DNA of 64,000 nucleotides. It comes from a bacterium (GTDB lineage Bacteria; Margulisbacteria; WOR-1; O2-12-FULL-45-9; XYB2-FULL-48-7). A model generated the notes under the pieces. That model worked only from the letters and a program-made list of their open reading frames with translations. It was not told where the DNA came from and searched no databases. Made by a program: the position numbers and the translations under genes. Shown here piece after piece: positions 16,999 through 48,465 of this stretch (the stretch's first letter is position 1; each line of letters starts with the position of its first letter). The stretch lies in assembly GCA_043812655.1 (NCBI GenBank), contig JBDRLW010000008.1, positions 3,198 to 67,197 of the forward strand, read 5' to 3'.

Positions 16999-18537
16999 AT
17001 GAACATTTGGCTATTGTTAGCAATTACAACTTTGTTACGGCTCTGTCTGGCGTCGCTTTTCCCTATCACCGCCGATGAATCATACTATTGGCTCTGGTCA
17101 AAGCATTTAAGCCTTTCTTATGTCGATCATCCGCCAATGGTGGCGGTCGTTAATTGGCTTTTCACCCACGGGACAGAAAACCTGATCATGCTCCGTCTGG
17201 GGACGGCAATAATTTCATTTTTGGTTAGCCTGCTCATCTATTTCCTAGCGAAAGAAGTTTTCAATGAAAAAGTCGCTTTCTGGTCGGTGGTCCTGTTCCA
17301 AATCCTTCCCCACTTCGTCGTCATCTGGTTGACGCAATTTGTCGAACTCCCGCTCGCTTTATTCTGGACTTTATCATTATTGATTCTGGCAAAAATATTC
17401 AATTTTTCCCATCCATCTTCTCCGAACCCCCAAATCCGAACTCCTAACTTATTATGGCTCGCGCTCGGCCTCACCATCGGCCTGGGTTCCCTTAGCAAAT
17501 ACACCATGTTCCTCTTCTGGCCGTGTCTTGGATTATTCTTTATTCTCTCTCCCGAAAACCGTTTCTGGCTTAAGCGAAAAGAACTTTACCTATGCCTTCT
17601 CCTAAGCCTATGCTTTTTTTCTCCAGTATTGATTTGGAATAACAACCATGCCTGGGCATCGTTTCTCTTCCATGGCAGTAAAGCTAGTGGAGATGCGTGG
17701 GGAACAAATTTTCTCCCCTTTGTTGGCGATCAATTAGTACACTTTACGCCTTTCCTTATTTTTACTCTTTTTGCTGTCGCTAAATCCTTCTTTCCAACTA
17801 ACAAACTAATGGCTCGACAAGCCCTTCGGCAAGCTCAGGGCAACATCGAGCGGAGTCGAGATGCTCGCCATCCCAGCCATCCCGAGCTCCGTCGAGGGAC
17901 AAACCAACAAACCAACCAACTCCCCCTCCTCCTCGCCTCGTTCTCCTTCCCCATCCTCTGCCTTTTCCTTTTCCTAAGCCTTAAGGTCAAGGTCTGGGCC
18001 CACTGGCCGGAGATCGGTTATATTGCGGCCATTCCCTTAACAATTAATTACTTAATTGAAAAGAATAAATCATTAAATAAATTCATTACTTGGATTGCAG
18101 GCTTCACCGGTTTAGTTCTAATTATTCTATTTTGGGTCACGCCAGCCATTCTCTTACATCAGAAAGATTACCTGGCTAATTATCAATTAACCAATTCAAT
18201 CCCCAAAGAGTATAAGCTCTTTGCCAAAACCAATGTCTCTTCGTCTCTCCTTGAGTTTTATACCAAGCGACCGGTTTATATGGCCACCGGTTTTTTAAAA
18301 GAGAACCATCTCTGGGGCGAAAAACAGTATGAACTCTGGGGAATTCCCAATTTAGTTAAAGGGGAAACTGTCATATATTATGGTGATGATACCCCTTTCT
18401 TTCAAGAAAAAGCCAAAACTAATTTCAGAAGCATTACAGAATTACCGGTTAAATTGTATTTAATTGAGGATTATATTACTAATAATTATAAGATGTTTAA
18501 ACTAGAAGGTTATAAAAGATCCGCTTCTCACCCTTAG
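16999..18537 (+). CDS. GT83/PMT_2 family membrane glycosyltransferase (ArnT-like), paralog 5
   Basis: ADESYYWLWSKHLSLSYVDHPPM motif. Carries in-frame repeat inserts R3 (17417-17448) and R4 (17803-17915). Confidence 0.65.
   Translation: MNIWLLLAITTLLRLCLASLFPITADESYYWLWSKHLSLSYVDHPPMVAVVNWLFTHGTENLIMLRLGTAIISFLVSLLIYFLAKEVFNEKVAFWSVVLFQILPHFVVIWLTQFVELPLALFWTLSLLILAKIFNFSHPSSPNPQIRTPNLLWLALGLTIGLGSLSKYTMFLFWPCLGLFFILSPENRFWLKRKELYLCLLLSLCFFSPVLIWNNNHAWASFLFHGSKASGDAWGTNFLPFVGDQLVHFTPFLIFTLFAVAKSFFPTNKLMARQALRQAQGNIERSRDARHPSHPELRRGTNQQTNQLPLLLASFSFPILCLFLFLSLKVKVWAHWPEIGYIAAIPLTINYLIEKNKSLNKFITWIAGFTGLVLIILFWVTPAILLHQKDYLANYQLTNSIPKEYKLFAKTNVSSSLLEFYTKRPVYMATGFLKENHLWGEKQYELWGIPNLVKGETVIYYGDDTPFFQEKAKTNFRSITELPVKLYLIEDYITNNYKMFKLEGYKRSASHP
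17417..17448. repeat. R3 repeat in frame in GT83 paralog 5
   Basis: tcttctccgaacccccaaatccgaactcctaac encodes SSPNPQIRTPN. Confidence 0.7.
17803..17915. repeat. R4 repeat (long form, about 110 bp) in frame in GT83 paralog 5
   Basis: aacaaactaATGGCTCGACAAGC...TCGCCATCCCAGCCATCCCGAGCTCCGTCGAGGGAcaaaccaacaaacc with a 41-bp internal segment absent from the other copy. Confidence 0.75.
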
Positions 18538-18543
18538 CTTTTT

Positions 18544-18672
18544 GCCCTCATCCGCTGGCGCTAAAGACTCCCCCTTCTCCCATAGGGAGAAGGGAACACA
18601 GCAAGACTAGACGTGCAAATTACCCTCTCCCTTTGGGAGAGGGGGAAAGGTTAACGTTGGCTGGGTGAGGGC
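18544..18672. repeat. R1 composite MITE-like element between convergent genes
   Basis: gccctcatccgctggcgc box, two CCYTCTCCC-NNN-GGGAGARGG hairpins, terminal gggtgagggc. Confidence 0.8.
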
Positions 18673-18679
18673 TAAAGGC

Positions 18680-19588
18680 TTAAATATTCCCGGTATAAAC
18701 GTATTTCAATCCGGCTTCCAACCCAATCTCCTTGGCCTTAATAACGGTTTCCCTCGGAGTTGCCGGCCGGTCAAGCATTTTATAAGTGGGGTAAAAAGCC
18801 GAAACGTGCCAAGGAACATCATCGCCAAGATCGTTCTTAATAAAGCTGGCAATTTCCGTTAATTCTTCATTTGAATCATTCAAACCGGGAATAATCAAAG
18901 TCGTCAGCTCGATCCAGATCTTAAGATTCCTCATTAATTTAATCGTGTCTAAAACCGGCTGCAGTCGCCCACCACAATATTTTTTATAGTAATCGTCACT
19001 GAACGACTTCAGATCAATATTCGCCGCGTCAAGATATGGAGCGATCATTTTAGTCGGTTCCGGATTAGAATAGCCATTGGTCACAAAAATATTTTTCAGG
19101 CCCTTCGCGTTAGCAAGTTTAGCGCAATCATAGGCAAATTCAAAAAATATTGTCGGTTCGGTATAAGTATAGGAGATGCTCTGGCAATCGTTATCAATCG
19201 CTGCCTTAACAATTTCTTCCGGCGTTGTCTCTATGCCGCCAATTCCCCCCTCATCCCATCGTCCCCTCGTCTCATCGTCCTTTCGTCCTTTCGTTGCTTT
19301 CGAGATCCCAAAGTTTTGGCAGAAATCACAGCGGAAATTACAACCAACCGTTGCAATTGAATATGACCTTGTTCCCGGCAAAAAATGGTTGAGGGGCTTC
19401 TTCTCGATCGGATCAATAGCGGCTGAAATAACTTTACCGTAAACTAAGCTGTATAAAACACCCTTTTGGTTTTCCCTAACCCCACAAATCCCTCGTTTCC
19501 CATCAGCAATCAAACAATTATGCGGACAAAGTAAACACTGGACCCTGGACTCTGGACCCTGGACCCTATAAAAAAGTGCTTCCCTCAT
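18680..19588 (-). CDS. AmmeMemoRadiSam-system radical SAM enzyme (AmrS-like)
   Basis: VQCLLCPHNC N-terminal Cys cluster plus GCNFRCDFCQN radical SAM motif. Contains two in-frame inserts: R2 at the N-terminus and a 20-aa low-complexity insert. Confidence 0.7.
   Translation of the reverse strand: MREALFYRVQGPESRVQCLLCPHNCLIADGKRGICGVRENQKGVLYSLVYGKVISAAIDPIEKKPLNHFLPGTRSYSIATVGCNFRCDFCQNFGISKATKGRKDDETRGRWDEGGIGGIETTPEEIVKAAIDNDCQSISYTYTEPTIFFEFAYDCAKLANAKGLKNIFVTNGYSNPEPTKMIAPYLDAANIDLKSFSDDYYKKYCGGRLQPVLDTIKLMRNLKIWIELTTLIIPGLNDSNEELTEIASFIKNDLGDDVPWHVSAFYPTYKMLDRPATPRETVIKAKEIGLEAGLKYVYTGNI
19539..19568. repeat. R2 repeat (CTGGACCCTGGAnyCTGGACCCTGG) in frame in the AmrS N-terminus
   Basis: Encodes YRVQGPESRVQ, directly before the conserved CLLCPHNC. 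Confidence 0.7.
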
Positions 19589-20871
19589 TCACAGCCGCAG
19601 TTGCCGCCGCATTCGCACTCGCCGGCAAATTGGTCAAAAACTTTATCAAAAGCGATCGGTGATTGCTCCGCCGTCTTCATGTTTTTGAGAAGACCCAAGC
19701 CCGATTTAAGTTCTTCTTCACCAATGATATAAACATATTCCGCCTTCATTCGATCCGCACTTTTCATCTGTGCTTTGAGTGACTTGCCAAGATAATCAAG
19801 ATCGGCCGATAAACCTAAACTCCGCGCCTTCGTCACCAAATTAAACCCTAACTTCCTTGCTTCGTCTCCAAGGGTAGCAATATATAATTGTAATTTACCT
19901 TCATTTTCCATTTTTAATTTTTCATTTTTCATTATTTCCACGACTCGCTCAAGCCCCACCGCAAACCCGATCGCCGGAACTTTTTTCCCGCCCAGCTCTT
20001 CAACCAGGTTATCGTAGCGTCCCCCACCGCAGACAGCATTTTGCGCTCCCAAACTCTTGGAAACAATTTCAAAGGCCGTTTTGGTGTAATAATCTAAACC
20101 ACGGACCAAGCGCTTGTTTATCATGTGTTTTACTAACAAACTATCCAACAAACTAACTAACCGACTAAAATGCGTCTTACATTCTTCGCATAAATGATCG
20201 ACAGAAGCTGGAGCCTTTTCCAAATATTTCTGGCAATGCGCTTCTTTGCAGTCAAGGATCCTTAACGGATTTAACTCCACCCGCTCCTGACAATCGGCAC
20301 ACATGTCTTTAATATGTTCTTTAAAGTATTTTTGAATCGCGGCGCGATATCCCGGCTGGCAAACGGAACAGCCGACCGAATTAAGATTAACCGATAAGTC
20401 TTTCAGCCCGATCATTGAAAACAAATTAACAGCTAATTGGATCACTTCGGCATCAAGGAGCGGATCGGTCGAACCAAAAACCTCAACTCCCGCCTGGTGG
20501 AATTGCCGCTGGCGTCCGGCTTGCGGCCGTTCATAACGGAACATCGGTCCGATATAATAAAGCTTTGTTAAATTATCGGTTGAGATCAAATTGTTTTCTA
20601 AAGCCGCCCGAACAACCGGAGCTGTCTCTTCTGGACGCAGGGTTAAACTCCTCCCCTTACGGTCAGGGAAAGTGTACATCTCTTTTTTAACAATATCGGT
20701 AGTCGTGCCAATTGAGCGGGTAAATAGGTCGGTTGATTCAAATATAGGGGTGCGGATCTCCTGATAATTGTAAACGCCAAAGAGCGACCGGCAGCTCTCT
20801 TCCACAAACTGCCAAAGGGGCGTTTCGGCGGGAAGAATATCTTTTGTGCCACGGGGTGCTGTATATTTCAT
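19585..20871 (-). CDS. hisS: Histidine--tRNA ligase
   Basis: Class II aaRS motifs and MKYTAPRGTKDILP as in the HisS N-terminus. The long ORF is trimmed to the ATG at 20871 because the upstream 100 aa overlap thiF and are not HisS-like. Confidence 0.85.
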   Translation of the reverse strand: MKYTAPRGTKDILPAETPLWQFVEESCRSLFGVYNYQEIRTPIFESTDLFTRSIGTTTDIVKKEMYTFPDRKGRSLTLRPEETAPVVRAALENNLISTDNLTKLYYIGPMFRYERPQAGRQRQFHQAGVEVFGSTDPLLDAEVIQLAVNLFSMIGLKDLSVNLNSVGCSVCQPGYRAAIQKYFKEHIKDMCADCQERVELNPLRILDCKEAHCQKYLEKAPASVDHLCEECKTHFSRLVSLLDSLLVKHMINKRLVRGLDYYTKTAFEIVSKSLGAQNAVCGGGRYDNLVEELGGKKVPAIGFAVGLERVVEIMKNEKLKMENEGKLQLYIATLGDEARKLGFNLVTKARSLGLSADLDYLGKSLKAQMKSADRMKAEYVYIIGEEELKSGLGLLKNMKTAEQSPIAFDKVFDQFAGECECGGNCGCE

Positions 20872-20917
20872 AAAGAAATTATACCACGAAGGCACAAAGG
20901 CACGAATAATGAAATAG

Positions 20918-21523
20918 TCATTTAAGAATTGATTCGACCGCGATTGAAGCCATGAGCGACGCGCAGGCGGTAACTCTCGGAGCCAGCGGAGGATTATCGC
21001 TCCCCACGCCAGTAACCCCATCCCCAACAATATAAATATTATTTTTAATTTTCCTGGTTTTAATTTCCAGCTGGTTGCCAAACCCCGCCATCCCACTGCC
21101 AAAAACCAACAATGTTCCATCATTCCCAAATTGCTCAAGCAGCCAGGCTTTTGAAGCGGCTTCGTCGAAGGCTTCAAATATTATGTCCCTATCCCTAAAA
21201 TAAGAGCCGATATTTTCTTCGCTAAGACGGACCCTCTCCGCCTTTACCATGATATCGGGATTAATAGTTTTTAATCTTTCAGCCAGAGCTTTAACCTTTG
21301 GCTTTCCAACATCTTCCAGGAAATAATATTGCCTATTTAAGTTTTTCATTACAACAACATCAAAATCGATCATTTCAAAATCCCTAAATCCGCTGCGAAC
21401 AAGACAAACAGCAATATTTGATCCCAGCCCGCCCGCGCCGGCAATACCAATTTTAGTTTTTTGTATCAATGATAATTGTTTCGCGGAATAATAATTTCTT
21501 AATGATCTCTCAAAGTCATTCAT
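20918..21523 (-). CDS. thiF: ThiF/MoeB-type E1-like sulfur-carrier adenylyltransferase
   Basis: GIAGAGGLGSNIAVCL Rossmann motif. Last gene of the thi operon. Confidence 0.7.
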   Translation of the reverse strand: MNDFERSLRNYYSAKQLSLIQKTKIGIAGAGGLGSNIAVCLVRSGFRDFEMIDFDVVVMKNLNRQYYFLEDVGKPKVKALAERLKTINPDIMVKAERVRLSEENIGSYFRDRDIIFEAFDEAASKAWLLEQFGNDGTLLVFGSGMAGFGNQLEIKTRKIKNNIYIVGDGVTGVGSDNPPLAPRVTACASLMASIAVESILK

Positions 21524-22493
21524 TGGGGATGCTCCGCCAATCGGTGACGACCGGGTCATATCCTTTGGCCGCCAGCCAGTTTTTTATTTCTTTAGGTGAG
21601 CGGCGATCGTGAATGGAGAATTGCTTCGGCTCACAGCCATTGATCGCGTATCCTCCCACGCTAGTAGAAGAACCAGCCGATATTTTAGTCACGCCATATT
21701 CAAGTATCTTATTCCTGAATTCGGCATTTTCTCTAGTCGACATATTAATCCCTACTCTAGGGAAACGGAGGCGCGCCGCGATAATAATCTGCAACAGTTC
21801 AAGATCAGAAATATTAAAATAATTATCATTATCAGTGGTGATCATGCGTAGCCTGGGGAACGACAGGGAGAATTCGACACCGGGATATTTTTCCCATAAA
21901 GCCTCCAGATGGGCAAACAACGCCGAAATATCCCGCTGCCAATCGGCTAAACCAAGTAAAACACCCATTGAGATCTGTCTTATTCCAGCTTCAGCAATTC
22001 TCTCCGGGGCCTGATAACGGAATAAATAATTTTTCTTTTCTCCGAAAAGGTGAAGCCGATCATAAACATCTTGATCATAAGTTTCCTGATACAAAGCCAC
22101 CCCATCAACCCCCGCCAGATAAAGTTCACGATATTCTTTAGTTTCCAGCGGATAAACTTCAATGGCTATGCCCTGGAAATATTTCTTGGCGATTAAGGCC
22201 GCTGCCTTGATGTAGGAAACAGGAGAATGTTCTCTGGAGCCGCCGGTTAAAACTAAAACATTCTGGAGACCAGTTTTTTTAAGGGCCTGGCATTCCCTCT
22301 CAATTTCGTCGTGAGAAAGTTTTTTTCTGGTTATGGCCAATTTGGCATTAAAACCGCAATATAAACACTGATTTTCACAATAATTTGAGATGTAGAGGGG
22401 AGCGTATAAGCTAATCGTCCGGCCAAAATGCTGCCGAGTAATTTTCCGCGCCTTCAGCGCCACCGCTTCCAAATCCGCTCTTTTGTCAATCAT
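21516..22493 (-). CDS. thiH: 2-iminoacetate synthase ThiH (radical SAM)
   Basis: [15 protein letters not shown] radical SAM cluster typical of ThiH. Start placed at the MIDKRAD ATG (22493), overlapping thiG by 8 bp. Confidence 0.7.
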
Positions 22494-23259
22494 GGAAAAA
22501 ACCAGACAAGGGCGAAGAAGCCGCCGCGTTCTCACTTGCTTCTCTCCCCCCAGCCAAAAAAGCGAGCCGTCCCGCTTCGATCGCTTGGGCAAAAGCAGCC
22601 GCCATCATGACCGGATCTTTTGCGGTCGCGACCGCAGTATTGACCAGGACGGCATCCACCCCCAGCTCCATCGCCTCGGCCGCCTGCGACGGCCGGCCCA
22701 AGCCGGCGTCCACAATCACGGGGACCTCGTTTATCTCCTCAATTAACACCTCAATCAGCGTTTTCATCTTTAATCCCTGATTTGAGCCGATCAGGGAACC
22801 AAGGGGCATCACTGCGGCCGCTCCCGCTTTTACTAGGTTGCGGGCGGTATAGAGATCGGGGTTCATGTAAGGCAAAACGGTAAACCCTTCGCTGGCCAGG
22901 ATTTCAACCGCTTTTAACGTCTCGGCGTTGTCCGGCAAAAGATATTTGCTGTCATTTACTACTTCAATTTTCACCCAGTCGCCATAACCCGCCTCTCGCC
23001 CTAGCCTGGCAATCCTGACCGCTTCTTTCGCGTTCCTTGCCCCGGAAGTATTGAGCATTAATATTATATTTTTAGGAATATACGACAGGATATTATCCTC
23101 ATTCTGCTCAAGGTCGACCCGCCGGAGGGCAACTGTTACTAACTGGGTACCGGACGCAATGATCGTTTCCTGTAACTCCATTTTGCTTTTAAATTTTCCG
23201 GTGCCGAGCAAAAACCGGCTCTCCAGCTCTTTCCCGGCAATAACCAAATTGTCCGCCAT
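22486..23259 (-). CDS. thiG: Thiazole synthase ThiG
   Basis: About 257 aa, TIM-barrel ThiG-like (GTGKFKS, LNTSG). Confidence 0.85.
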
Positions 23260-23459
23260 TATCCTCCTCCAACAAAAGAGATCAATTCAATAACATCATT
23301 TTCTTTAATGGTCGTATCAGGCCACCGCTCTCGCCTGGCGATCGTTTCATTTAATTCAACCACCACACCGGCCGACTCGGGCCGATATTTTTTTACCAAG
23401 CCGGAAATTGATAAACCCTCTTCTATCTCTTCAACTTTTCCGTTGATAATTACTTTCAT
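23259..23459 (-). CDS. thiS: Sulfur carrier protein ThiS
   Basis: 66 aa ending in GG (ELISFVGGG). Start trimmed to MKVIINGK. Confidence 0.7.
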
Positions 23460-24066
23460 CTCTGTTCCTTTTAATGATTTCCAGCAAGCGGGGGGCGTCA
23501 TCCGCTGCCCGAACAATGCCGATGGTTCGAGCTCCAGCGTTCAACACTTGATCGATGTTATCAAGACAAATACCGCCGATCGCCACGAAGGGGATTTTTA
23601 TCTCTTTGGCCGCCTGGCGAACATATTCTAATCCGACCGGAGGCCTCCCTGGTTTTGTCGGCGTAGCAAAAACGGGGCCGACTGAAATATAATCTGCCCC
23701 TTCTTTCTCCGCCGTTATCCCCTGTTCGATTGAATGGGTCGATTTGCCGATCATTAAATCTGTCCCGACGATCCTTCTGGCTTCAAGGGTCGAAAAATCC
23801 TGGCCAATGTGGACACCGTCCGCCCCCGCCTCAACCGCCAGTTCCGGATGGTCATTAATGATAAATAAGACTTTAAAGTTTTTGGCCTGATCGGCCAGTT
23901 CTTCCGCTTTCCGCCGGATCCCGTTTAAACCTGACAATTTATCACGCAGTTGAATTATCGTTACTCCGTCAGCAATGGCTTTTTTTAAGACGGCTACAGA
24001 ATCGGAAATTATATATAATTTGTTAGCGAAAAGAGTCTCAAAAAGATAGTGTTTAGAGGCGGCCAT
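23431..24066 (-). CDS. thiE: Thiamine-phosphate synthase ThiE
   Basis: 211 aa ThiE-like (IIQLRDK, GADGVHIGQ). First gene after the TPP riboswitch. Confidence 0.85.
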   Translation of the reverse strand: MAASKHYLFETLFANKLYIISDSVAVLKKAIADGVTIIQLRDKLSGLNGIRRKAEELADQAKNFKVLFIINDHPELAVEAGADGVHIGQDFSTLEARRIVGTDLMIGKSTHSIEQGITAEKEGADYISVGPVFATPTKPGRPPVGLEYVRQAAKEIKIPFVAIGGICLDNIDQVLNAGARTIGIVRAADDAPRLLEIIKRNRDESNYQRKS

Positions 24067-24160
24067 TTTTCCCTCCGCAAGAATTACCTTGATCAGGTTA
24101 TTTTGGGTCCCCCGGCTCCCCCGAGGTTCTCAGCCTAAGCTTCCTTTAAGCTCCCCAATG
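24067..24160 (-). promoter_or_regulatory. TPP (THI-box) riboswitch controlling the thiESGHF operon
   Basis: Minus-strand RNA reads ggggagc...gCUGAGAa-[P3 hairpin CCUCGG/CCGGGG]-ACCCaaaauaACCUGAUCaagGUAAUucuuGCGgAGGGAaaaAUG. CUGAGA, ACCUGAUC and GCG..AGGGA are THI-box hallmarks, and the SD GGAGGG is embedded in the aptamer 3' end. Confidence 0.75.
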
Positions 24161-24179
24161 TTTAAATTATAGCACAAAG

Positions 24180-24223
24180 CCACCCCCTCTCCCCCTGGGA
24201 GAGGGGGCCTGGGGGTGAGGGCT
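24180..24223. repeat. R1 element copy upstream of the TPP riboswitch
   Basis: ccctctccccctgggagaggggg hairpin plus a gggggtgagggc box. Confidence 0.75.
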
Positions 24224-24255
24224 GTGATTGCCTCCTTATGTTATAATAAATTGTA

Positions 24256-25629: not shown

Positions 25630-26521
25630 ATGGCTCTTTTTTTTTAAAATCCGGCAGATAAGCGTCACTGCTTGACAAGTGCTGGATATATATATTTTGA
25701 AACCCTTTGTCCTGGGCGTGATCGACAACTTTCTCATATTCAGCCGCCGTTAATTTTCGAGCTAACTCGGGAAATTCCTTCGCCCGGTGCTGCGGACTAT
25801 ACTGCGACATCAAGCTCAACCAAATCTCAGTTGAAATACCGGCCAAAAAATCCAAGACCTTAAAGCTATCAGCAATATTATTCGGTAAAACAAGGTGTCT
25901 CACTATCAACGCTCTTCTCCCAACTCCACACTCCCGACTCCTAACTACCTGCCCCCACATCTCCCTCACCCCAACCGTTACCGTCTCAACATAATTCTCT
26001 GCCCCAGAATATTTAAACGCGTTATCATTATCAAAATATTTAATATCCGGGAGGTAAATATCAACCAGGCCGTCAAGCCTTTGCAAAAGCTCCAGCGAAT
26101 CATAACCCCCGGTATTGTAGACGATCGGCAACTCCAACCCTTCTTTTTTGGCTAGCATCAAGGCGTCTATGACCTGTGCGCCATAATGCGTTGGTGAAAC
26201 CAGGTTTATATTTTCCGCTCCCCTGTCAGCCAGATCAAGCATTATTTTAACCAGCTCATTAATCGTCACCTCGCGGCCAAGTCCTTGCTGGCTAACTTGA
26301 TAATTCTGGCAATAAACGCATTTAAGCGAACAACCGGAAAAAAAGACCGTCCCCGACCCTCTTTGGCCAGAAATTTGCGGTTCTTCACCATGATGAAGAC
26401 AATAAGAGGCAACTTTAATCTTATCACCTGCCCCGCACTTTCCCCCAAACTGACTAACAAACTTACCAACTCCCCTCTCTACCCCGCACCGATGGCCGCA
26501 TAAATTGCATTTAGTCACCAT
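25616..26521 (-). CDS. Radical SAM protein, PflX family (pyruvate-formate-lyase-activase homologue)
   Basis: CNLCGHRCGV N-terminal cluster plus CSLKCVYCQN radical SAM motif. Carries an in-frame R3 repeat insert (25913-25945). Confidence 0.6.
   Translation of the reverse strand: MVTKCNLCGHRCGVERGVGKFVSQFGGKCGAGDKIKVASYCLHHGEEPQISGQRGSGTVFFSGCSLKCVYCQNYQVSQQGLGREVTINELVKIMLDLADRGAENINLVSPTHYGAQVIDALMLAKKEGLELPIVYNTGGYDSLELLQRLDGLVDIYLPDIKYFDNDNAFKYSGAENYVETVTVGVREMWGQVVRSRECGVGRRALIVRHLVLPNNIADSFKVLDFLAGISTEIWLSLMSQYSPQHRAKEFPELARKLTAAEYEKVVDHAQDKGFQNIYIQHLSSSDAYLPDFKKKEPFSSQ
25913..25945. repeat. R3 repeat in frame (opposite orientation) in the PflX-like radical SAM gene
   Basis: tcttctcccaactccacactcccgactcctaac, translated on the minus strand as VRSRECGVGRRA. 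Confidence 0.7.
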
Positions 26522-26545
26522 ATATTATTATAGTATAATGGATCC

Positions 26546-27106
26546 ATGGCCAAACCAACTATTATTCTCGCTTCCGCCTCACCCAGAAGAAAAGAATTAT
26601 TAAAACGCTTAGTTGATAATTTCACGGTCATCCCCAGCAGTGTCGATGAAAAACTGATCACTGCCCCTACGCCGGAAGAGCTGGCAGAAAAGACGGCTCT
26701 TGCTAAAGCCAACGATGTCGCCAAAAATGAAAAAGATGCCATTGTGATAGGAGCCGACACAATTGTAATTCTTGGCGATATTATCCTGGGCAAGCCGAAA
26801 GATAATGACGAAGCCTATTTGATGCTTAAAAGTTTATCCGGCACTACCCATAAGGTTGTAACTGGTCTGGCAGTTATTGATACTAAAACCGGCAAAACAC
26901 AAAGCACTTATGTTGTCTCCCAAGTCAAGATGAAAAATGTTTCTGATCAAGCGATCAAAGATTATATTAGCACCGGCAGTCCCTTAGATAAAGCCGGTGG
27001 TTACGGCGTCCAAGAGATCGAAGACGCGTTTATGGCCAAGATCGATGGCGATCTTGATAATGTCGTTGGTTTACCAGTCAAAACTTTAAAGGAGATGCTG
27101 AAATGA
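26546..27106 (+). CDS. maf: Maf-like nucleoside triphosphate pyrophosphatase
   Basis: ILASASPRRKELL N-terminus and Maf-family length (186 aa). Confidence 0.8.
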   Translation: MAKPTIILASASPRRKELLKRLVDNFTVIPSSVDEKLITAPTPEELAEKTALAKANDVAKNEKDAIVIGADTIVILGDIILGKPKDNDEAYLMLKSLSGTTHKVVTGLAVIDTKTGKTQSTYVVSQVKMKNVSDQAIKDYISTGSPLDKAGGYGVQEIEDAFMAKIDGDLDNVVGLPVKTLKEMLK

Positions 27107-27663: not shown

Positions 27664-27762
27664 CCTCTCCCCGTCACTCACTTCGTTCGTGCCACCCCTC
27701 TCCATGAAATGGAGAGGGGAATGAATTCTCCGATGAAATCGGAGAAGAAAGGGGTGAGGGTG
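27664..27762. mobile_element. R1 MITE-like element (97 bp) with terminal inverted repeats
   Basis: ctccccgtcactcacttcgttcgtgccaCCCCTCTCCatgaaatGGAGAGGGGaatgaattctccgatgaaatcggagaagaaaGGGGTGAGGG. About 90% identical to the intragenic copy at 47989-48081. Confidence 0.75.
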
Positions 27763-27801
27763 TGCTATAATAAATAAAATTTATTGAAAGGAGATCTAAT
27801 C

Positions 27802-27960
27802 ATGGCAATCATCGAAGAATCAGAATATAAAGGCAAACCGGTTTTAGTTATCAAGCGGGACGAGAATGACAAATACCCGTTTTCGTTCGGGATCAGCAAA
27901 GCAAAATTGATGATCGAAAATCTGGAAGCGATCAAAAAGTTCGTCGAAAAGAACGGCTAA
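27802..27960 (+). CDS. Unannotated small protein (52 aa) flanked on both sides by R1 repeat elements
   Basis: ATG at 27802 preceded by AAGGAGA with 7-nt spacing; encodes MAIIEESEYKGKPVLVIKRDENDKYPFSFGISKAKLMIENLEAIKKFVEKNG. Falls below the 60-aa cutoff of the ORF track. Confidence 0.3.
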   Translation: MAIIEESEYKGKPVLVIKRDENDKYPFSFGISKAKLMIENLEAIKKFVEKNG

Positions 27961-27967
27961 GATTTAG

Positions 27968-28124
27968 ACCCTCACCCGCTAATGCTTAAGACTCCCCCCT
28001 CTCCCATAGGGAGAGGGTAACTCGCTTGTTTTATGTTTTATTTTTATACCCCCTCTACCTCCCTGCCTGCCGGCAGGCAGGTGGGAGAGGGGGTGCTATT
28101 GTTTGGCGTTGACGGGGGTGAGGG
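27968..28124. mobile_element. R1 composite element containing a nested R6 palindrome
   Basis: Runs accctcaccc...cccctctcccatagggagaggg...cctgcctgccggcaggcagg...gggggtgagggc, with TIR-like ends. Confidence 0.75.
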
Positions 28125-28135
28125 CTGTGAGGTTT

Positions 28136-29537
28136 TTACATCACCGGCAGGTTCGAGCTTCCCATTAAATATTCGTCTACCGCTCTGGCGGCTTTACGGC
28201 CTTCGGATATTGCCCAGACTATAAGTGATTGGCCTCGTCTCATATCACCAGCGGCAAATATTCCCTTAATGGAAGTCATATAATTTTGATTAGTTTTGAA
28301 GTTTCCCCGCTGATCAAGCTCGATCTTTAGATCAGCGATCGGTTCGGGATGTAAGAAACCTAAGGCCAGAAAAACCAGGTCGGCTTCTATCGTAAATTCA
28401 GAGTGAGGTATTTCTTTCAAATTCAGATCAACTTTTACACATTGCAATTTCTGGACCCTGGATCCTGGACCCTGGAATTCTTTTGTCGCAATCGACCACT
28501 GCCGTTCACAGCCTTCTTCATGACTGCTGGAAGTCTTAAGGATTAGCGGATACTTTGGCCATGGCTGGTCAACCGGCCGAGTTTCGCTTGGCTGCGGCAA
28601 GAGTTCTATTTGTACCACACAACTGGCCCCTTGGCGCTGAGCGGTTCCTACACAGTCTGAACCTGTATCACCCCCACCGATCACCACCACTTTTTTTCCT
28701 TTAGCATCAATTAATGAGTTCGTTGGTATTTTTTCTCCGGCAATTGTTTTATTGGCTTGGGTCAGATATTCCATCGCAAAGTAAACACCTTTGAGTTCCC
28801 GGCCGGGAGCTTTTAAGTCGCGGGGAATTCTGGATCCTCCGGCAAAGACAATTGCCTCAAATTCTTTTTGGAGCTTAGAAACAGGATAATCATCACCTAT
28901 CTTAATTTTAGTTTTAAAAGTGATCCCCTCTTCTTCCCAGATCTTGGTCCGACGATCGATGACTTTCTTTTCCAGCTTAAAATCAGGGATGCCGTAGCGC
29001 ATGATCCCGCCCAGTTTTTCGTCTTTTTCAAATACTGTAACACTATGGCCCGCTTGATTTAATTGCGCGGCGCAAGACAGTCCAGCTGGGCCAGAGCCAA
29101 CAACCGCTACTTTTTTACCGGTCGTAACTTTAGGCTGTCTGGCCTTGATCTGGCCGTGATCGAACATTTCTTCAACTATCCCCAATTCATTTTCCCTGAT
29201 CGTCACCGGGTCATCGTTGATCCCCAAGACACAAGAAAATTCGCACGGCGCCGGGCAAACTCGGCCGGTGATCTCTGGCAGATTATTGGTCGCGTCAAGG
29301 AGTTCCCAAGCTCTTTCCCACGATTTTACCGACGTCAGGTCATTCCACTCCGGGATATAATTACCAAGAGGACAGCCGCCATGGCAGAATGGGGTCCCGC
29401 AATCCATACAGCGGGTGGCCTGTTCCGCCGTCTCGTCTTCCGACCTAAGTTTAAAAACCCGGTCGAAATCTTTTACCCGCTCGCAAACCGGGCGGTAAGC
29501 GGTTTTGGTCCTTTTTATTTTTATGAACCCCTTTGGA

Positions 29538-29545
<8 letters not shown>
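28136..29545 (-). CDS. gltD: Glutamate synthase (NADPH) small subunit
   Basis: N-terminal Fe-S Cys motifs and GSGPAG FAD/NAD fold. Immediately downstream of gltB. Carries an in-frame R2 repeat insert. Confidence 0.85.
28450..28474. repeat. R2 repeat in frame in gltD
   Basis: ctggaccctggatcctggaccctgg encodes FQGPGSRVQ. Confidence 0.7.
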
Positions 29546-33947
<4,402 letters not shown>

Positions 33948-33983
33948 AGGTGTTGACCCGAAAAACCCTGCCCCATTACTAAA

Positions 33984-35318: not shown

Positions 35319-35355
35319 AGGTCAACACCCCCATAATTTAAATCCAATAGAGTAA

Positions 35356-35373
35356 AAGCAAATCAATTGCCGC
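35356..35373 (-). promoter_or_regulatory. Sigma54 (-24/-12) promoter for glnA(-gltBD)
   Basis: Minus-strand cGGCAAttgatTTGCTt has GG-N10-GC spacing and matches TGGCAC-N5-TTGCW, about 40 nt upstream of the glnA ATG. Confidence 0.55.
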
Positions 35374-35466
35374 TCTTAAACCCGGTCATTTTACGACAAT
35401 TATGTAGAATATTTGGGGTGTTTTTACGTTTTTGTATGGATATATTTAGGGTTACGTTCGGAACCT

Positions 35467-35552
35467 GAGAATAAAATTCTCGGTTCCTCAAAAAATGGAA
35501 CCGCGACTTTCAGCCTTGCCTGCCGGCAGGCAGGTCGCAGGTTCATACCAAA
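35467..35552. repeat. R5 repeat with an R6 palindrome nested in its second hairpin loop
   Basis: cggaacctgagaataaaattctcggttcc...ggaaccgcga[ctttcagccttgcctgccggcaggcagg]tcgcaggttc. Confidence 0.7.
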
Positions 35553-35554
35553 TC

Positions 35555-37648: not shown

Positions 37649-37696
37649 GTGATATTTCTCCTTTTCACAGCATTTTAACATTATGCTTCAATAGAA

Positions 37697-37713
37697 AGCA
37701 ATTTCATTGCCAG
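37697..37713 (-). promoter_or_regulatory. Sigma54 (-24/-12) promoter for glnN
   Basis: Minus-strand cTGGCAAtgaaaTTGCTt is a near-consensus TGGCAC-N5-TTGCW element, about 50 nt upstream of the start. Confidence 0.6.
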
Positions 37714-37773
37714 TTGAAGCCCGCACAAACTCAAACAATTTTGTAATAAATGCCTGTGGATAATACAAAATTG

Positions 37774-40207
<2,434 letters not shown>

Positions 40208-40221
<14 letters not shown>

Positions 40222-41704
40222 TAATAGTATCCTTATAGCTGGCGATCAGTTTAGCTAAACGCTCTTCCGCTTCTTTGGAAAACTCTTTGAGCCCGGCCAT
40301 CAGCTCGGGATCGCTCCGCCGCACAAAACTGGTCACCCCTTTCTCAAACTCCTTGACTTGAGTCAGCGGGATATTATCCATATAGCCGGTGATCGCGGCA
40401 TAAATAATAATGATCTCATCTTCAACCGGCAGAGGCTCGTTCTTCTCTTGCTTTAAAGTCTCTGCCATCAGGGCGCCGCGTTTTAACTGCCGCTTTGTCT
40501 CCTCGTCAACTTCGGTCGCGAAAAGCGAAAACGACTGCTTTTCCCGGTATTGGGCCAGATCCAGGCGAAGCCGCCCAGCGATCTTCCTGATCGCCGGAAC
40601 TTGGGCTTTGCCGCCAACCCGGGAAACAGAAATGCCGACGTTAACGGCCGGACGGATGCCGGCATTAAAAAGGTCGGTTTCGAGGAAGATCTGCCCGTCG
40701 GTAATAGAAATGACATTGGTCGGGATATATGAGGTGACATCCCCTAATTGGGTTTCAATGATCGGCAAAGCGGTCATTGAGCCCCCGCCTAACTCAGCTT
40801 TCAGTTTAGCCGCCCGCTCAAGCAACCTGGCATGGAGATAAAAGACATCCCCAGGATAAGCTTCTCTCCCCGGTGGCCGACGGAGTAAAAGAGAGATCAT
40901 CCGGTAAGCCTTGGCGTGTTTAGTTAAATCATCATAAATGATCAAAACATCTTTGCCGTTAAACATAAATTCTTCAGCGATCGCGCAACCGGCAAAAGGA
41001 GCGACATATTGAAGGGAAGCCGGATCAGAGGCGGAGGCGGAAACCACGACCGTATAATCCATCGCGCCGTGTTCTTTTAAGGTTTCGATCATCTGGACAA
41101 TATTCGACTCTTTTTGCCCAATAGCAACGTAAATACAAACAACATTTTGGTCTTTCTGGTTAATGATCGTATCGACCACGATGACCGATTTCCCCGTTGA
41201 GCGGTCGCCGATGATCAGCTCTCTCTGCCCGCGGCCAATAGGGATCAGGGTGTCGATCAATTTACAGCCGGTCTGGAGCGGTTGGCAAACAGGGGTCCGG
41301 TCAACCACCCCCGGAGCAATTTTTTCAACCGGGCGGAATTTATCGGTCTTGATCTCTCCCAAGCCATCGACCGGTTTTCCCAACGCATCAACTACTCGGC
41401 CGATCAACGCATCTCCAACCGGGACCTGCATCACTTGGCCGGTCGATTTAGCCGTATCCCCTTCTCTTACCGCGGTATGGGGCCCTAGTAAAACAGCCTG
41501 GATGTTCTCCTTTTCAAGGTTAAAAACCATCCCCAAATAATTATTCCGGAATTCAACCATCTCCCCAGCCATCGCCGAAGAGAGGCCTTTGATCTTAATG
41601 ATCCCGTCGAGCGATTCAATGACGGTGCCAACTTCCCCGACCCGAGCCGTCGGGGTAAAAGCTTCGATATGTTTTTTTATGATCGAGGAAATATCTTCAG
41701 ACAA
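40208..41704 (-). CDS. atpA: F-type ATP synthase alpha subunit
   Basis: Walker A GDRSTGKS, 498 aa. Confidence 0.9.
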
Positions 41705-42194
41705 TGAGCGCCTCCTTTATGGCTTCAATTTCGCCTTGCAATGTAGAATCATAATAGCGGCCGTCTTCCCATTTTAATTTTAAGCCGCCAATGATCTTGG
41801 GATCGACTTTGAAGCGATATCTTATTTTGTCGGGCTTTATAGCTTTAAAAACATTTTCGTTCAGCAGCGGGACGGCCGACGTTACTTCCAGGTATTCGGT
41901 GGCTGTTTTCTTGGAAACAACTTCCGAATATTTATTGGCCAGCCAAGAGAGCCTTTCCAGCAATTCCTCCCGCAACAGCAAATTAAAAAGGTCGCGAAAA
42001 ACCCGCGAAGCGGCAGGGAAAAGATCGGCAAGAACGGTCCGCTTATTTTTCTCCGATACGCCATTGTCAACAAAAAAATACTTAAGATCAAGATCGCTGT
42101 TAAGGGCGTAGGAAAAACGGTAAAGCTCGCGCTCCAGCTGGAGCGCGTCTTTTCCCGCTAGATCATATAATTTTTCGACATCGATCTCTTTCAT
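41697..42194 (-). CDS. atpH: F-type ATP synthase delta subunit (OSCP)
   Basis: Operon position and size (165 aa). Confidence 0.7.
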
Positions 42195-42673
42195 GGTTTA
42201 ACCTGGGCGATACTCTCCTCTATTAAACGGCGGTTATCTTCGGGCGTTATTACCCGGCGCAAAACTTTTCCGGTCGCCATGGCCACCAACTCCACGACTT
42301 CCTGCTTGGCGGAAGCAACGATCTTGTCTTTTTCCCGTTCCAGCTCAAGCCGCGCTTTTTCCATTATTTTATCGGCTTCCCGGCTGGCTGCGGTAATGAT
42401 CCCTTCCTTGGTCTGGCGGCCTTCTTCTTTTGCCCTCTCTACCATCTGGTCAGCGCTTTGGTGGGCTTGCGCATATTTTTTCTTTTGGTCTTCTAGCAAT
42501 TCGGCTGTTTTCTTTTGGTTAGCTTCGGCCAAAGCGATCGAATCGGCGATCATTTTTTCCCTCATCGCCAAAAAATTCAGGAGGGGTGGCAATGCTACTT
42601 TATAAAGCAAGGCCACCAACATCCCAAAAGAGACCGTTGTCCAAAATATCAATCCAGTTTCAATTTCGAGCAT
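42191..42673 (-). CDS. atpF: F-type ATP synthase b subunit
   Basis: Single N-terminal TM helix plus a long charged helix. Confidence 0.75.
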   Translation of the reverse strand: MLEIETGLIFWTTVSFGMLVALLYKVALPPLLNFLAMREKMIADSIALAEANQKKTAELLEDQKKKYAQAHQSADQMVERAKEEGRQTKEGIITAASREADKIMEKARLELEREKDKIVASAKQEVVELVAMATGKVLRRVITPEDNRRLIEESIAQVKP

Positions 42674-42679
42674 TGTTCC

Positions 42680-42937
<258 letters not shown>

Positions 42938-43669
42938 TTAATGGTTTTCTTCCAACGCGGTCGCGATATAAAGCGATGACAAATAAGCAAAAATAAACGC
43001 CTGGATGAACGCGACAAAAACTTCAAATATTGAGAAAATAAAATCACCAAGCAAAGGCAAAGGAATGACCAAATAGCTTTTAAAAATAAAGATCAAAGAC
43101 AAAAGGATCATCATTAAAGCATGGCCAGCAAACATATTGGCAAACAAGCGGAGCGCCAGGGAAAAAGGCTTGGCTAATTGGCTAAGAAACTCGATCGGAA
43201 CCATTAAGACTTGGACAAAGAACGGAATATCACAAGGGACAAGTGATCTGGCGTAACTGACCAGGCCGCGCTTTTTAATGCCGCTTAAATGGACAACAAG
43301 GAAGACGATGACCGCCAGCGTTCCCGTCACATTAATATTGGCGGTCACGCCGGAAAATATTGGGATCAACCCGGCCAGGTTGCAAAACAGGACAAAGAAA
43401 AAAAGAGCGATAATGAAAGGGAGCCACTTATCTTTTTCTGTCCCTAATTGTTCTCCCATTTCATTCCGCAGAAATATGACCATCGTTTCAGCCAGGTTTT
43501 GGGCGGTCCCCGGAACAAGTTTTAGCGAGCAGGTAGCTAAAAAAAAGAAGAATAAAACTGATATTCCCGCTACCCATAGAGTTATTACTCCATTAGTGAT
43601 CGAAATATCCACGCCAAACAATGAAAGAGGTATTATTGTGCGTTGATAAAGATTTTCAAGTACGTTCAT
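42938..43669 (-). CDS. atpB: F-type ATP synthase a subunit
   Basis: Polytopic protein with the conserved Arg region (LALRLFANMFAGH). Confidence 0.85.
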   Translation of the reverse strand: MNVLENLYQRTIIPLSLFGVDISITNGVITLWVAGISVLFFFFLATCSLKLVPGTAQNLAETMVIFLRNEMGEQLGTEKDKWLPFIIALFFFVLFCNLAGLIPIFSGVTANINVTGTLAVIVFLVVHLSGIKKRGLVSYARSLVPCDIPFFVQVLMVPIEFLSQLAKPFSLALRLFANMFAGHALMMILLSLIFIFKSYLVIPLPLLGDFIFSIFEVFVAFIQAFIFAYLSSLYIATALEENH

Positions 43670-43841
43670 TTTTACCTTCTGTCATTTTATACGCATTCCA
43701 AAAACCGGCCGCCGCACCAAGGATAACACCAATAATCAATCCCCAAGGGACATTGATCTTGTAACCGATAAAAGCGCCCAGAAAAACCGCCGCCGCGATC
43801 TCAAACCCTAAACCAGCGGACCCAATCCAAGCATTATTCAT
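43656..43841 (-). CDS. Small ATP-synthase-associated membrane protein (AtpI/AtpZ-like)
   Basis: 61-aa two-TM protein immediately upstream of atpB. Confidence 0.35.
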   Translation of the reverse strand: MNNAWIGSAGLGFEIAAAVFLGAFIGYKINVPWGLIIGVILGAAAGFWNAYKMTEGKNERT

Positions 43842-43873
43842 CTTCTGATATTTTAGCAGTAATTAATTTTTTA

Positions 43874-44212
43874 TTAAAGCGCCTTTTCGCCCCGCTCCCC
43901 AGTCCTGACCCTGACAACATCCAAAACAGGGGAGATAAATATCTTGCCATCGCCAACTTTGCCGGTGGAACAGGTTTTCTGGATAACCTCTATGATCGTG
44001 TCAACCTTGGCATCGGCCACTACTAGTTCAACTTTTATTTTGGGGATAAATTCGACGCGATAATCACCAACCCGCCACTCAAGCGTGATCCCTTTTTGCG
44101 CCCCTCGCCCTTTAACTTCTGTCACCGTCATTGAGGAAAGATTTTGAGCATCAAGCGCTTCCCTTAGCTCTTCAAGCTTTTCACTTCTGATGATCACTTC
44201 AACTTTTTTCAT
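43874..44212 (-). CDS. glnK: P-II nitrogen regulatory protein (GlnK type, downstream of amt)
   Basis: 112 aa with a PII fold and T-loop (RGAQKG). Confidence 0.85.
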   Translation of the reverse strand: MKKVEVIIRSEKLEELREALDAQNLSSMTVTEVKGRGAQKGITLEWRVGDYRVEFIPKIKVELVVADAKVDTIIEVIQKTCSTGKVGDGKIFISPVLDVVRVRTGERGEKAL

Positions 44213-44249
44213 TTTTTTTTACCTCCTTTATGCTGAGCTTGTCGAAGCA

Positions 44250-45470
44250 TTATGCCACCTCCGCGTGCTGGGAAATATCAAGCCCGACCAACTCTTCGTT
44301 CTCGGTCACTCTAAGACCGATCATTAAATCGACAAGCTTCGCTAAGATAAGGGCCGCCACAAAAGCAAAAAGCGCTGTAATGCTCGCGGCTTGGAATTGG
44401 ATCCACAATTGCCCTGGGTTGCCAAACAATAATCCGTCGGCTCCGGCGGGATTGACAGCTTTACTGGCAAAGATACCGGTCGCGATCGCGCCCCAAAATC
44501 CTCCAATCCCATGGCAGGCAAAGGCATCAAGCGACTCATCGATCCTAATTTTCATCCGTAGAATGATCATATAGTACGAGATGATCGCCGCGATCGCCCC
44601 GATCGCGATCGAAGAAAGCGGATCAACAAACCCTGCGGCAGGCGTAATGGCCACTAGTCCTACTACCGCTCCGGTCGCCACCCCCAAAACGCTTGGCCGA
44701 CGGTGGATCCAACTCAATACCATCCAGGTCAGGGCCGCCGCGGCCGCCGCTGTATTAGTGACTGCAACTGCCGAAGCAGCTAAACCGTTAGCCGCTAAAG
44801 ATGACCCGCCGTTAAAACCAAACCAGCCAAACCAAAGGAGAACAGCGCCAATGACAACCAGCGGAATATTAGAAGGCTCCATGTTGTCTTTGCCATAGCC
44901 GCGCCGTTTGCCGATGACCAACGCGATCGCCAGCGCGGTAAAACCAGCGGTGATATGGACAACCGTTCCCCCGGCAAAATCAAGCGCTCCCATCATCCGA
45001 AGCCAACCGCCAACACCCCAGATCCAATGGGCCACTGGATCATAAACTATTGTCGTCCAAAGAAGAGAGAATATAAGAAAAGCCGAAAATTTAGCCCTCT
45101 CCACGAACGCGCTGACAAAAAGCGTCGGCGTGACGATCGCGAAAGCCGCCTGGAAGATCATAAAGACCAAAGCCGGGATCGTCGCCGCATAATCAACATT
45201 CGGCGCTTGACCAACGCCTAGTAATCCTAACCACTGGCCCCCGCCGATCAAACCTTTAAGTGTGGGAGCAAAAGCTAAAGAATAGCCAATCAAAACCCAC
45301 TGGATACTAACTACAAACAGGAGCGCAAAACACATCATGATAGTGGAAAGAATATTTTTTTTCCTCACCATCCCGCCGTAAAAGAACCCGACCGCCGGCG
45401 TCATCAAGATCACTAGCGCCGCCGAAATTAAAACCCAAGCCGTATCTCCGCTGTTTATCATTTCTATCAT
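44250..45470 (-). CDS. amt: Ammonium transporter Amt
   Basis: 11-TM Amt/MEP family protein ([10 protein letters not shown]). Confidence 0.9.
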
Positions 45471-45476
45471 CCTCCT

Positions 45477-46205
45477 TTATAAATTAATATCCAACTGCGT
45501 GGTTAGCGTTGGTTTCGCCCCATTGTTATATTTGCCATAAGCACAGAGAACAGAGGTATTCGCTGAAAATGCGTATGAAAAACCGGCAAACAAGGCACCA
45601 AGTGACGAGTCGCCTCCAGCATAATCAACCGAAGCCCATATTTTATCGGTCAGCATTTTATCCCAAGTTAAAATAACACCCGCTCCGTCAGAGCCTAAAG
45701 TAGTTTTATTTCCCGCAAAGTAGCCAGCCGATATTCGGCCAAAGCTAAAGGTTTTTGCCCCAACACCATAAAGAATATTTTGGTCGGTCGCCCCTTTAAG
45801 CAAACCAAAGCCATACCCACCAACCGCTAAAGCCGGGAAAATATCGCTTTCAGCAATCCCATATTTAGCATTAAAAACCAAAGAACTTCCGGCCACTCCC
45901 TGGGGCAGAAAGGCATCAGCTCCAATTTCAACTCCCGAAATTACACCATAAGTTAAACCCAGGTCGGTCGGAAATTGCTGGCCGCCAGAACCCTTATCTT
46001 CAACTGAAAAATAATCATCAATCCCCAGATGCCATGTCCCCTTCGCCTGGATATCGGTCGACGGATTCCAGATCTGGGTCGACGGCGTCGCCAGCGCAGC
46101 CCCTCCCACTAACAAACTAACCAACAAACAAATGGCTCGACAAGCTCGCCATCCCAGCCATCCCGAGCTCCGTCGAGGGACTAACAGACTTTTCATGATT
46201 TTCAT
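45477..46205 (-). CDS. Putative outer-membrane porin co-transcribed with amt-glnK
   Basis: Signal peptide then alternating amphipathic beta-strands. Start trimmed to the ATG at 46205 (AAGGAGGG SD). An R4 repeat copy is translated within the signal-peptide region. Confidence 0.4.
   Translation of the reverse strand: MKIMKSLLVPRRSSGWLGWRACRAICLLVSLLVGGAALATPSTQIWNPSTDIQAKGTWHLGIDDYFSVEDKGSGGQQFPTDLGLTYGVISGVEIGADAFLPQGVAGSSLVFNAKYGIAESDIFPALAVGGYGFGLLKGATDQNILYGVGAKTFSFGRISAGYFAGNKTTLGSDGAGVILTWDKMLTDKIWASVDYAGGDSSLGALFAGFSYAFSANTSVLCAYGKYNNGAKPTLTTQLDINL
46108..46185. repeat. R4 repeat (short form) in the porin gene signal-peptide region, translated from the opposite strand
   Basis: ctaacaaactaaccaacaaacaaATGGCTCGACAAGCTCGCCATCCCAGCCATCCCGAGCTCCGTCGAGGGActaaca. 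Same plus-strand orientation as the 17.8-kb copy, but the host gene is on the minus strand. Confidence 0.75.
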
Positions 46206-46230
46206 TGTTTCCCTCCTTGCCCAATAAAAG

Positions 46231-48451: not shown

Positions 48452-48465
48452 TTTACTTTTTTATA

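Follow-up and report, generated by a model that had tools for sequence, protein, structure and literature searches.

A short REP/MITE-like repeat, probably translated as tolerated filler in unrelated genes of a Margulisbacteria (WOR-1) genome

[quoted passage not shown] The RPEs are about 100-150 bp long, and each of their families encodes one conserved peptide in one frame (PMC10969869, summarising Ogata et al. 2000, 2002). The classical MITEs, such as Correia/NEMIS, ERIC, BOX and the Coxiella QMITE, are small and non-autonomous and sometimes overlap or fuse with open reading frames (ORFs) (PMC10969869, PMC5896051). The repetitive extragenic palindromes (REPs) and REPINs are extragenic, are present in tens to hundreds of copies per genome and are mobilised by RAYT transposases (PMC3116915, PMC3337134), and the elements of the IS200/IS605 type and their small derivatives with palindromes have hairpins near their ends, lack long terminal inverted repeats (TIRs) and target-site duplications and insert beside a short specific sequence, 3' of a fixed target of 4-5 nt (PMC6006769). 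In this study, we compared with these systems a short repeat, R4, from a 64,000-nt stretch (hereafter the window) of contig JBDRLW010000008.1 (assembly GCA_043812655.1, positions 3,198 to 67,197). The source is a metagenome-assembled genome (MAG) whose proteins carry ABIH50_ locus tags in NCBI (MFH1386350.1 and MFH1386322.1 are among them) and, for the window, are encoded on a 122-kb contig, with Candidatus Margulisbacteria/Saganbacteria (= WOR-1) as the nearest relatives. R4 was found inside two unrelated genes of the window, which encode a glycosyltransferase and a porin-like protein, and inside a third gene that encodes RsmE. We consider R4 to be a REP/MITE-like dispersed repeat that is translated as tolerated filler at permissive sites, with a probability of roughly 0.6. 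It is most likely tolerated selfish DNA, and the type of event is uncommon but already known.

The long core of R4 (91 nt, 17809-17899, + strand) and the short core (49 nt, 46132-46180, + strand) share the 35-mer TCGCCATCCCAGCCATCCCGAGCTCCGTCGAGGGA, which is present exactly twice in the window (17865-17899 and 46146-46180, both on the + strand) and in none of 100 shuffles, as well as the exact word ATGGCTCGACAAGC at 17809 and 46132. When the window was searched with both copies by a sensitive BLAST, the two forms shared 38 identical bases and no further core copy was found. The GC content of the cores is 64-65% (64% for the long one) compared with 46% for the window, and the units of 93 and 51 nt as well as the difference of 42 nt between them are all multiples of three. 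Because both copies are on the + strand, the GT39/PMT_2 gene on the + strand and the porin-like gene on the - strand, the claim of an earlier sequence-only reading that the repeat is translated in opposite orientations in two unrelated genes was supported by the sequence, and so was its observation that both host readings lack stops, as the ORFs 16999-18537 and 45477-46205 run through R4. The same reading had described long and short forms, which do exist, but the internal extra segment is 42 nt long (17823-17864, + strand) and not 41 nt. The flanking 'caaaccaacaaac' motifs that it had assigned to the repeat are real, but they belong to a separate (AACN)n repeat that is also present without the core. 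The stop-free reading of R4 is unremarkable in itself since shuffled cores are often equally poor in stops: the stop count was at or below the observed one in 9% (long) and 13% (short) of the dinucleotide-shuffled cores. An avoidance of stop codons as an adaptation to coding was therefore rejected (P = 0.09 and 0.13, respectively; non-significant). As single-stranded DNA, the short core folds into a stable hairpin of the REP/REPIN kind, with a 12-bp interrupted stem (-10.5 kcal/mol, z = -2.4). No match at the gathering threshold of Rfam 15 was found in the window, the only match around R4 being a chance one (E = 9.7), and literature searches with R4 peptides and DNA words as strings gave no match in searchable papers.

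The short copy is located in a gene of 242 aa (45477-46205, - strand), the first of a cluster, porin-amt-glnB, whose conservation extends to relatives. No Pfam match was found for this ORF, and AlphaFold2 (AF2) modelled it as a 12-strand beta-barrel (predicted local distance difference test, pLDDT, 84.6), for which the best Foldseek matches were a COG4313 channel, FapF, a KdgM-type porin and OmpF; we therefore refer to it as a porin-like outer-membrane barrel. The core is read here in antisense as (V)PRRSSGWLGWRACRAI (codons 9-25). R4 is most likely translated within this gene, judging from the start-site signals at the ATG at 46205-46203 and from the downstream codons, which lack a ribosome-binding site (RBS) or a charged N-terminus. 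The Shine-Dalgarno sequence AAGGAGG (46212-46218, - strand) is 6 nt upstream of this ATG, and directly upstream of the RBS there is a sigma-54-type promoter-like site, TGGCAGAAAGTTTGCT (46231-46246, - strand), which reads TGGCAG-N5-TTGCT and differs by one mismatch from the query TGGCAC-N5-TTGCT. A start further downstream, for example at the TTG/GTG codons at 46127-46107, would make R4 an untranslated part of the 5' untranslated region (UTR) in this gene. In-frame TTG and GTG codons do occur within CLLVSLLVGG, and R4-type tracts are present in the 5' and 3' UTRs of gdhA. However, none of these codons has an RBS, the AAGGAGG and the -24/-12 site stand at the upstream ATG, which is also the start taken in the NCBI annotation, and no charged N-terminal region would remain, whereas the inspected homologues begin with MK/MR-type sequences; a downstream start, which the earlier reading had named as its own refutation, is thus very unlikely. 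The placement of the repeat in coding sequence rather than in the 5' UTR, as first proposed from the letters of the window, is in agreement with all of these signals.

The position of the insert inside the signal peptide also proved to be as first described. In the porin homologues, a signal peptide of about 20-23 residues is followed by a near-invariant mature end, ATPSTQIWNPSTDIQ. The segment before the mature end is 39 aa long here compared with a median of 22 in 118 other homologues, and the longer segments that were inspected turned out to result from wrongly called starts, with a normal MK... signal peptide further inside. The layout of this segment is MKIMKS-LVPRRSSGWLGWRACRAIC-LLVSLLVGGAALA, in which LVPRRSSGWLGWRACRAIC separates MKIMKS from LLVSLLVGGAALA upstream of the mature end. 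When the 119 family members with the mature-end motif are compared, the R4 residues stand out as inserted with respect to all the others. By simple measures of charge and hydropathy, the insert raises the net charge ahead of the hydrophobic core from +2 to +6, while the core itself (13-15 residues) and the ALA cleavage motif are intact. Based on these measures, the signal peptide probably stays Sec-like and export is probably retained. A Tat motif in the insert was considered and rejected, as PRRSSGW does not fit S/T-R-R-x-F-L-K. The porin loci of the closest relatives (L001, L224, L225 and L226) have neither R4 nor the tract.

Sites resembling the sigma-54 type (TGGCA-N6-TTGCT-like, all on the - strand) were found directly upstream of the porin-amt-glnB cluster (46231-46246), of GSIII (37697-37712) and of glnA (35357-35372), and the window also encodes an NtrC-type activator (50369-51889) and NrpR (58567-59583); based on these features, the porin looks nitrogen-regulated, the sites being supportive only since their overall count in the window is at chance level. 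Within the same cluster, the 37-nt spacer between amt and glnB holds an exact solo arm of the widespread palindromic repeat that is described further below, ATGCTGAGCTTGTCGAAGCAT (44230-44250), which overlaps the amt stop codon and stands just before the glnB RBS.

The long copy is hosted by a GT39/PMT_2 (ArnT-like) glycosyltransferase (16999-18537, + strand), the fifth such paralog in the window, where its sense reading gives MARQALRQAQGNIERSRDARHPSHPELRRG, at about residues 271-301. The protein has 512 aa compared with 464-480 aa for most homologues. In an alignment of 44 GT39 sequences, PTNKLMARQALRQAQGNIERSRDARHPSHPELRRGTNQQTNQ stands between two hydrophobic helices in place of a loop (YSLKKDEGTK) that is about 10 residues long, and the residues from R4 are inserted with respect to each of the 43 other homologues. 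The AF2 model agrees with this placement: R4 lies between helices H238-264 and H307-326, and the pLDDT, which is 90.5 overall, falls to 56-78, the lowest values of the protein, only across residues ~265-305. The five paralogs (4307-5965, 9606-11066, 13785-15227 on the - strand, 15351-16991 and 16999-18537) are part of a lipid A/glycosylation gene cluster.

A six-frame peptide search of 5.8 billion proteins revealed a third copy in RsmE (P0241, 271 aa, MFH1386070.1), which carries the long form read as TNGSTGPSTSSGQHRAESRCSPSQPSRALSRDK; the reading uses the +2 frame, and of 33 residues 3 are changed. This protein presumably comes from the same MAG, since its accession series is that of the proteins of the window; it is encoded on a 45-kb contig. 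The insert is located in a variable stretch just before LLIGPEGG, and on either side of it there is a stretch that can be aligned with solved RsmE structures. As with the RPEs, all three insertions are in frame and at permissive sites, namely a GT39 loop, a porin signal peptide and a variable stretch of RsmE. The frames differ, being sense frame 0 in GT39, sense frame 2 in RsmE and antisense in the porin, and the single shared frame of an RPE family was not found; because the three copies are read in three frames, R4 is conserved as DNA and not as a peptide. RsmE was the only further carrier of an R4 peptide that was found in the six-frame search, in which an absence is weak evidence, and a HMMER search of 1.84 billion representative proteins for the GT39-frame peptide found none, the only match being a spurious repetitive protein.

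Were the R4 peptides instead selected protein modules that add a function to their hosts, one might point to the frame, which suits each site, with basic inserts in the GT39 loop and the signal peptide and a Ser/Pro-rich one in RsmE. This is highly improbable given that three copies use three frames with no common peptide, that nothing similar was found among the 1.84 billion representatives, that the model confidence of the GT39 insert is low and that the mature porin no longer has its signal peptide. It is equally improbable that the insertions are artefacts of assembly or binning: the source is indeed a MAG and repeats can mislead assemblers, but at three loci the inserts are all in frame and at permissive places, with unbroken homology to the orthologues on both sides, and a related element is present in an independent Saganbacteria MAG.

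Both copies in the window are embedded in (AACN)n tracts. The long core is flanked by ACTAACAAACTA on the left (17797-17808, + strand) and CAAACCAACAAACCAACCAACT on the right (17900-17921, + strand), and the short core by ACTAACAAACTAACCAACAAACAA on the left (46108-46131, + strand), the complement of which encodes the hydrophobic core of the signal peptide (CLLVSLLV), and by the tract remnant CTAACAGAC on the right (46181-46189, + strand), the complement of which encodes SLL(V) just after MKIMK. The flanks are direct and not inverted. The 12-mer ACTAACAAACTA occurs four times in the window compared with 0.012 expected. Tracts without a core were found at 26437-26474, 59626-59652 (gdhA 5' UTR) and 61006-61045 (gdhA 3' UTR), and a fourth is located inside hisS (20128-20167), where it encodes SRLVSLLDSLLV and is identical to the porin flank at 23 of 25 positions. 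The tract is probably older than the core that entered it, because in two relatives (L002 and L003) a tract but no core is present in the orthologous GT39 loop, the tract being ACCAACAAACCAACAGACCAACAAACTAA (TNKPTDQQT) in L002 and similar in L003. When 93 nt are removed from the GT39 gene, the reconstructed empty site reads TNKPNQQTNQ, near the TNKPTDQQTK of L002, and the removal of 51 nt from the porin gene gives MKIMKSLLGLLVSLLVGGAALA, a signal peptide of 22 aa, which equals the family median. On its A/C strand, the tract reads as polar residues (T/N/K/Q), as in the GT39 loop, and on its G/T strand as L/V/S/C, as in the core of the signal peptide, which fits the site that was found for each orientation. 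The repetitive flanks would mask a short target-site duplication; with L002 as the reference, the in-frame reconstruction is compatible with a unit of 93 nt and a duplication of 0-1 nt. The core is preceded by ..ACAAAC(T/A)A in both copies of the window and, as deduced from the peptide, by ..CCAACTA in RsmE, these being three sites that are all in repetitive tract. A match of CTTCGACAAG in L002 was dismissed as ordinary coding sequence for LYLVEDYI.

The tracts also offer a different route of spread, in which ectopic recombination or gene conversion from one tract to another would have carried the core along passively, with no autonomous or transposase-driven element involved. This explanation fits the same-strand tracts on each side of both window copies, the core-less tracts at four further sites of the window and in the GT39 loop of L002 and L003, and the fact that neither a target-site duplication nor a transposase was found in the window. 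On the other hand, the flanking homology is just 9-24 nt long and imperfect, the RsmE copy, judged from its peptide, apparently has little tract to its right, and the element in the Saganbacteria MAG (L223) has no tract flanks; we thus regard passive spread as unlikely, though it is the alternative that deserves the most weight. Either transposition into tract units or recombination between tracts may move R4.

If R4 is a tolerated REP/MITE-like repeat, its history may have been as follows. A short, non-coding, GC-rich and hairpin-forming repeat, carried by one Margulisbacteria/Saganbacteria lineage, would have lodged in (AACN)n tracts within genes, and the surviving genic copies would be those that kept the frame, were free of stops in the frame used and stood at a permissive site. 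In the glycosyltransferase, this site would be the loop between two membrane helices. In the porin, the repeat would have entered early in the signal peptide, a few residues inside the old hydrophobic core, where it would now extend the positively charged N-terminal region. A Sec signal peptide is cut off after export. The R4 peptide would accordingly be neutral or mildly costly filler and not a functional peptide. The 42-nt segment that is specific for the long form contains CCTTCGGCAAGCTCAGGGC and has the imperfect direct 9-mers TCGACAAGC and TCGAGATGC at its borders, between which an in-frame deletion may have produced the short form from the long one. If the long form were read in the frame of the porin, it would run into a TGA stop (…SMLP*ACRR), which the 42-nt deletion removes; this hints at the short form as a rescue event, a coincidence of one in six at best.

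The sequence CCTTCGGCAAGCTCAGGGC matches a widespread 19-mer, CCTTCGACAAGCTCAGGGC, at 18 of 19 positions, and the long form also holds degenerate copies of this word in TCGACAAGC, TCGAGATGC and, in the reverse sense, CGAGCTCCGTCGAG. The 19-mer was found in 94 IMG/VR stretches (L010-L103) and at at least 120 genome loci from GTDB (L104-L223), compared with an estimate of about 4 expected by chance. As counted from the record titles, the genome matches listed span roughly 18-20 phyla and 36-72% GC. Usually, it forms the right arm of ccGTTCGnnCTGAGCyTGTCGAAGnn…CCTTCGACAAGCTCAGGGCGAACgg, and the two-arm element is sometimes arranged in tandem arrays (e.g., L177 and L139). This CTGAGCTTGTCGAAG ... 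CTTCGACAAGCTCAG element has the layout of a REPIN, with two inverted arms around a spacer, and a name for it was found neither in Rfam, where 18 loci of canonical elements gave no match, nor in the searchable literature. Canonical copies have CTGAGCyTGTCGAAG on the left, CTTCGACAAGCTCAG on the right, a spacer of 10-40 nt and outer GTTCG/CGAAC. R4 differs in that it has one right-arm copy with one mismatch, carries degenerate extra copies, shows the arms in the opposite order and lacks the GTTCG/CGAAC ends; its long segment is a related sequence and not a canonical member of the CTGAGCTTGTCGAAG palindromic repeat.

Among the matches listed, only the Candidatus Saganbacteria locus L223 extends the match to R4 beyond the 19-mer, with 84-86% identity over 56-62 nt (~79% outside the 19-mer). 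This element shares the TAAT|SSCTCGACA left end with R4 and, in keeping with what was said of its flanks, stands outside any tract. Its position (5786-5851, - strand) is between a GT4 glycosyltransferase gene, to which it contributes the final codons and the TAG stop, and a gene for an outer-membrane protein, just upstream of the latter. R4 and the L223 element may be local branches of the very widespread, GC-rich CTGAGCTTGTCGAAG / CTTCGACAAGCTCAG family that may spread with no target-site duplication, possibly by a mechanism of the HUH/Y1 type. R4 may target the C-N-AAC units of (AACN)n tracts, its multiple-of-three units (51 and 93 nt) may let it persist in coding sequence, and the short form in the porin may be a rescue deletion, given the TGA of the long form in that frame. 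Taken jointly, these suggestions are doubtful.

Returning to R4 as a tolerated REP/MITE-like repeat, it resembles the RPEs in several respects: it is short and palindromic, is found in frame in unrelated genes at structurally permissive places and adds an extra translated peptide. Unlike the RPEs as described in the review, it has units of 51/93 nt, uses three frames and orientations, is located inside (AACN)n tracts and belongs to another host phylum. By this comparison, R4 appears to behave like the RPEs but not to be a family member, in view of its different frames, shorter length and location in tracts. With REP/REPIN it shares a short, GC-rich, imperfect palindrome that is dispersed and has no coding capacity of its own. 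However, in place of a high-copy extragenic repeat, all three known copies are genic, two of them within 64 kb, no RAYT was seen in the window, and the arms are degenerate and in reverse order. R4 is also compatible with the pattern of IS200/IS605, as the core follows immediately 3' of C(A/T/C)AAC-type tract units at each of the three sites, all in repetitive sequence, but no TnpA was found in the window. Like the classical MITEs, R4 is a small, non-autonomous repeat found in frame with ORFs. In contrast to them, with their TIRs of at least about 10 bp, the only inverted match at the ends of the core is CTCGAC / GTCGAG, i.e., 6-7 bp; moreover, no target-site duplication could be demonstrated and R4 is far shorter than most of them.

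Several observations weigh against a mobile, tolerated repeat. Since no target-site duplication, long TIRs or empty site in a close relative could be demonstrated, we infer the mobility of R4, past or present, and have not demonstrated it. None of the ~47 ORFs of the window has a transposase, RAYT or TnpA domain, and only three copies of R4 are known. The folding of the long form was not above that of shuffles (z = -0.2), and a claim of unusual RNA or DNA stability for this form was dropped as unsupported. The tract in hisS is ordinary coding sequence, whose product can be aligned colinearly and free of any insertion with S. aureus HisRS (1qe0); viewing the tracts purely as a 'landing pad' does not account for this. 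The six-frame peptide search did not re-list the two known host proteins, which makes its sensitivity doubtful. Finally, exact 22-mers of the R4 3' module (the CCATCCCAGCCATCC loop) were not found elsewhere: there were no matches in 185,579 GTDB species genomes or in IMG/VR, and the six matches in JGI metagenomes were all by chance, in coding DNA of 57-67% GC that encodes RHPSHPE. R4 is thus untraceable outside its MAG by exact words.

As a case from outside Rickettsia, R4 is a clean example of a small repeat that persists in essential or conserved genes by way of permissive places, and it presents the signal peptide as one such place, in which the extra residues are discarded after export. 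It is also of importance for annotation: segments derived from repeats in the proteins of uncultured lineages resemble lineage-specific inserts, and here one DNA sequence gives three unrelated peptides. Tentative leads on the spread of very short repeats are given by the 19-nt word that many phyla have in common and by the location of R4 in tracts.

Another repeat of the window, of about 100 nt, has two copies (47975-48075 and 27664-27760) with a 9-bp TIR (CCTCACCCC/GGGGTGAGG) and inner palindromes. The first copy is read in frame inside a gltD-like gene (47036-48451, - strand) as ...ASPLSSDFVGIHSPLHKVERGGTNEVSDGVRV... between the Fer4_20 and Rossmann domains, while the second is intergenic; a gltD-like paralog (28136-29545) has no insert. 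The presence of a second repeat family in frame within a gene suggests that this genome generally tolerates such inserts. A further family, GCCCTCACCC...CCCCTCTCCCAWAGGGAGAGGGG, is present in about eight copies near gene ends or between genes, often as inverted pairs (7525-7576, 18544-18599, 18618-18682, 24183-24225, 27958-28030, 48460-48524, 48536-48591 and 63671-63735), and similar GGGAGAGGG modules were found in the relative L003. The stretch of the window with the lowest GC content (40%) encodes a Type ISP restriction-modification enzyme of 1029 aa (52410-56069, - strand), which adjoins a gene with a SocA/Panacea antitoxin domain. A 192-nt direct repeat with 72% identity (61096-61287 and 61801-61992) corresponds to two adjacent paralogous genes for small outer-membrane barrels (61098-61736 and 61803-62456).

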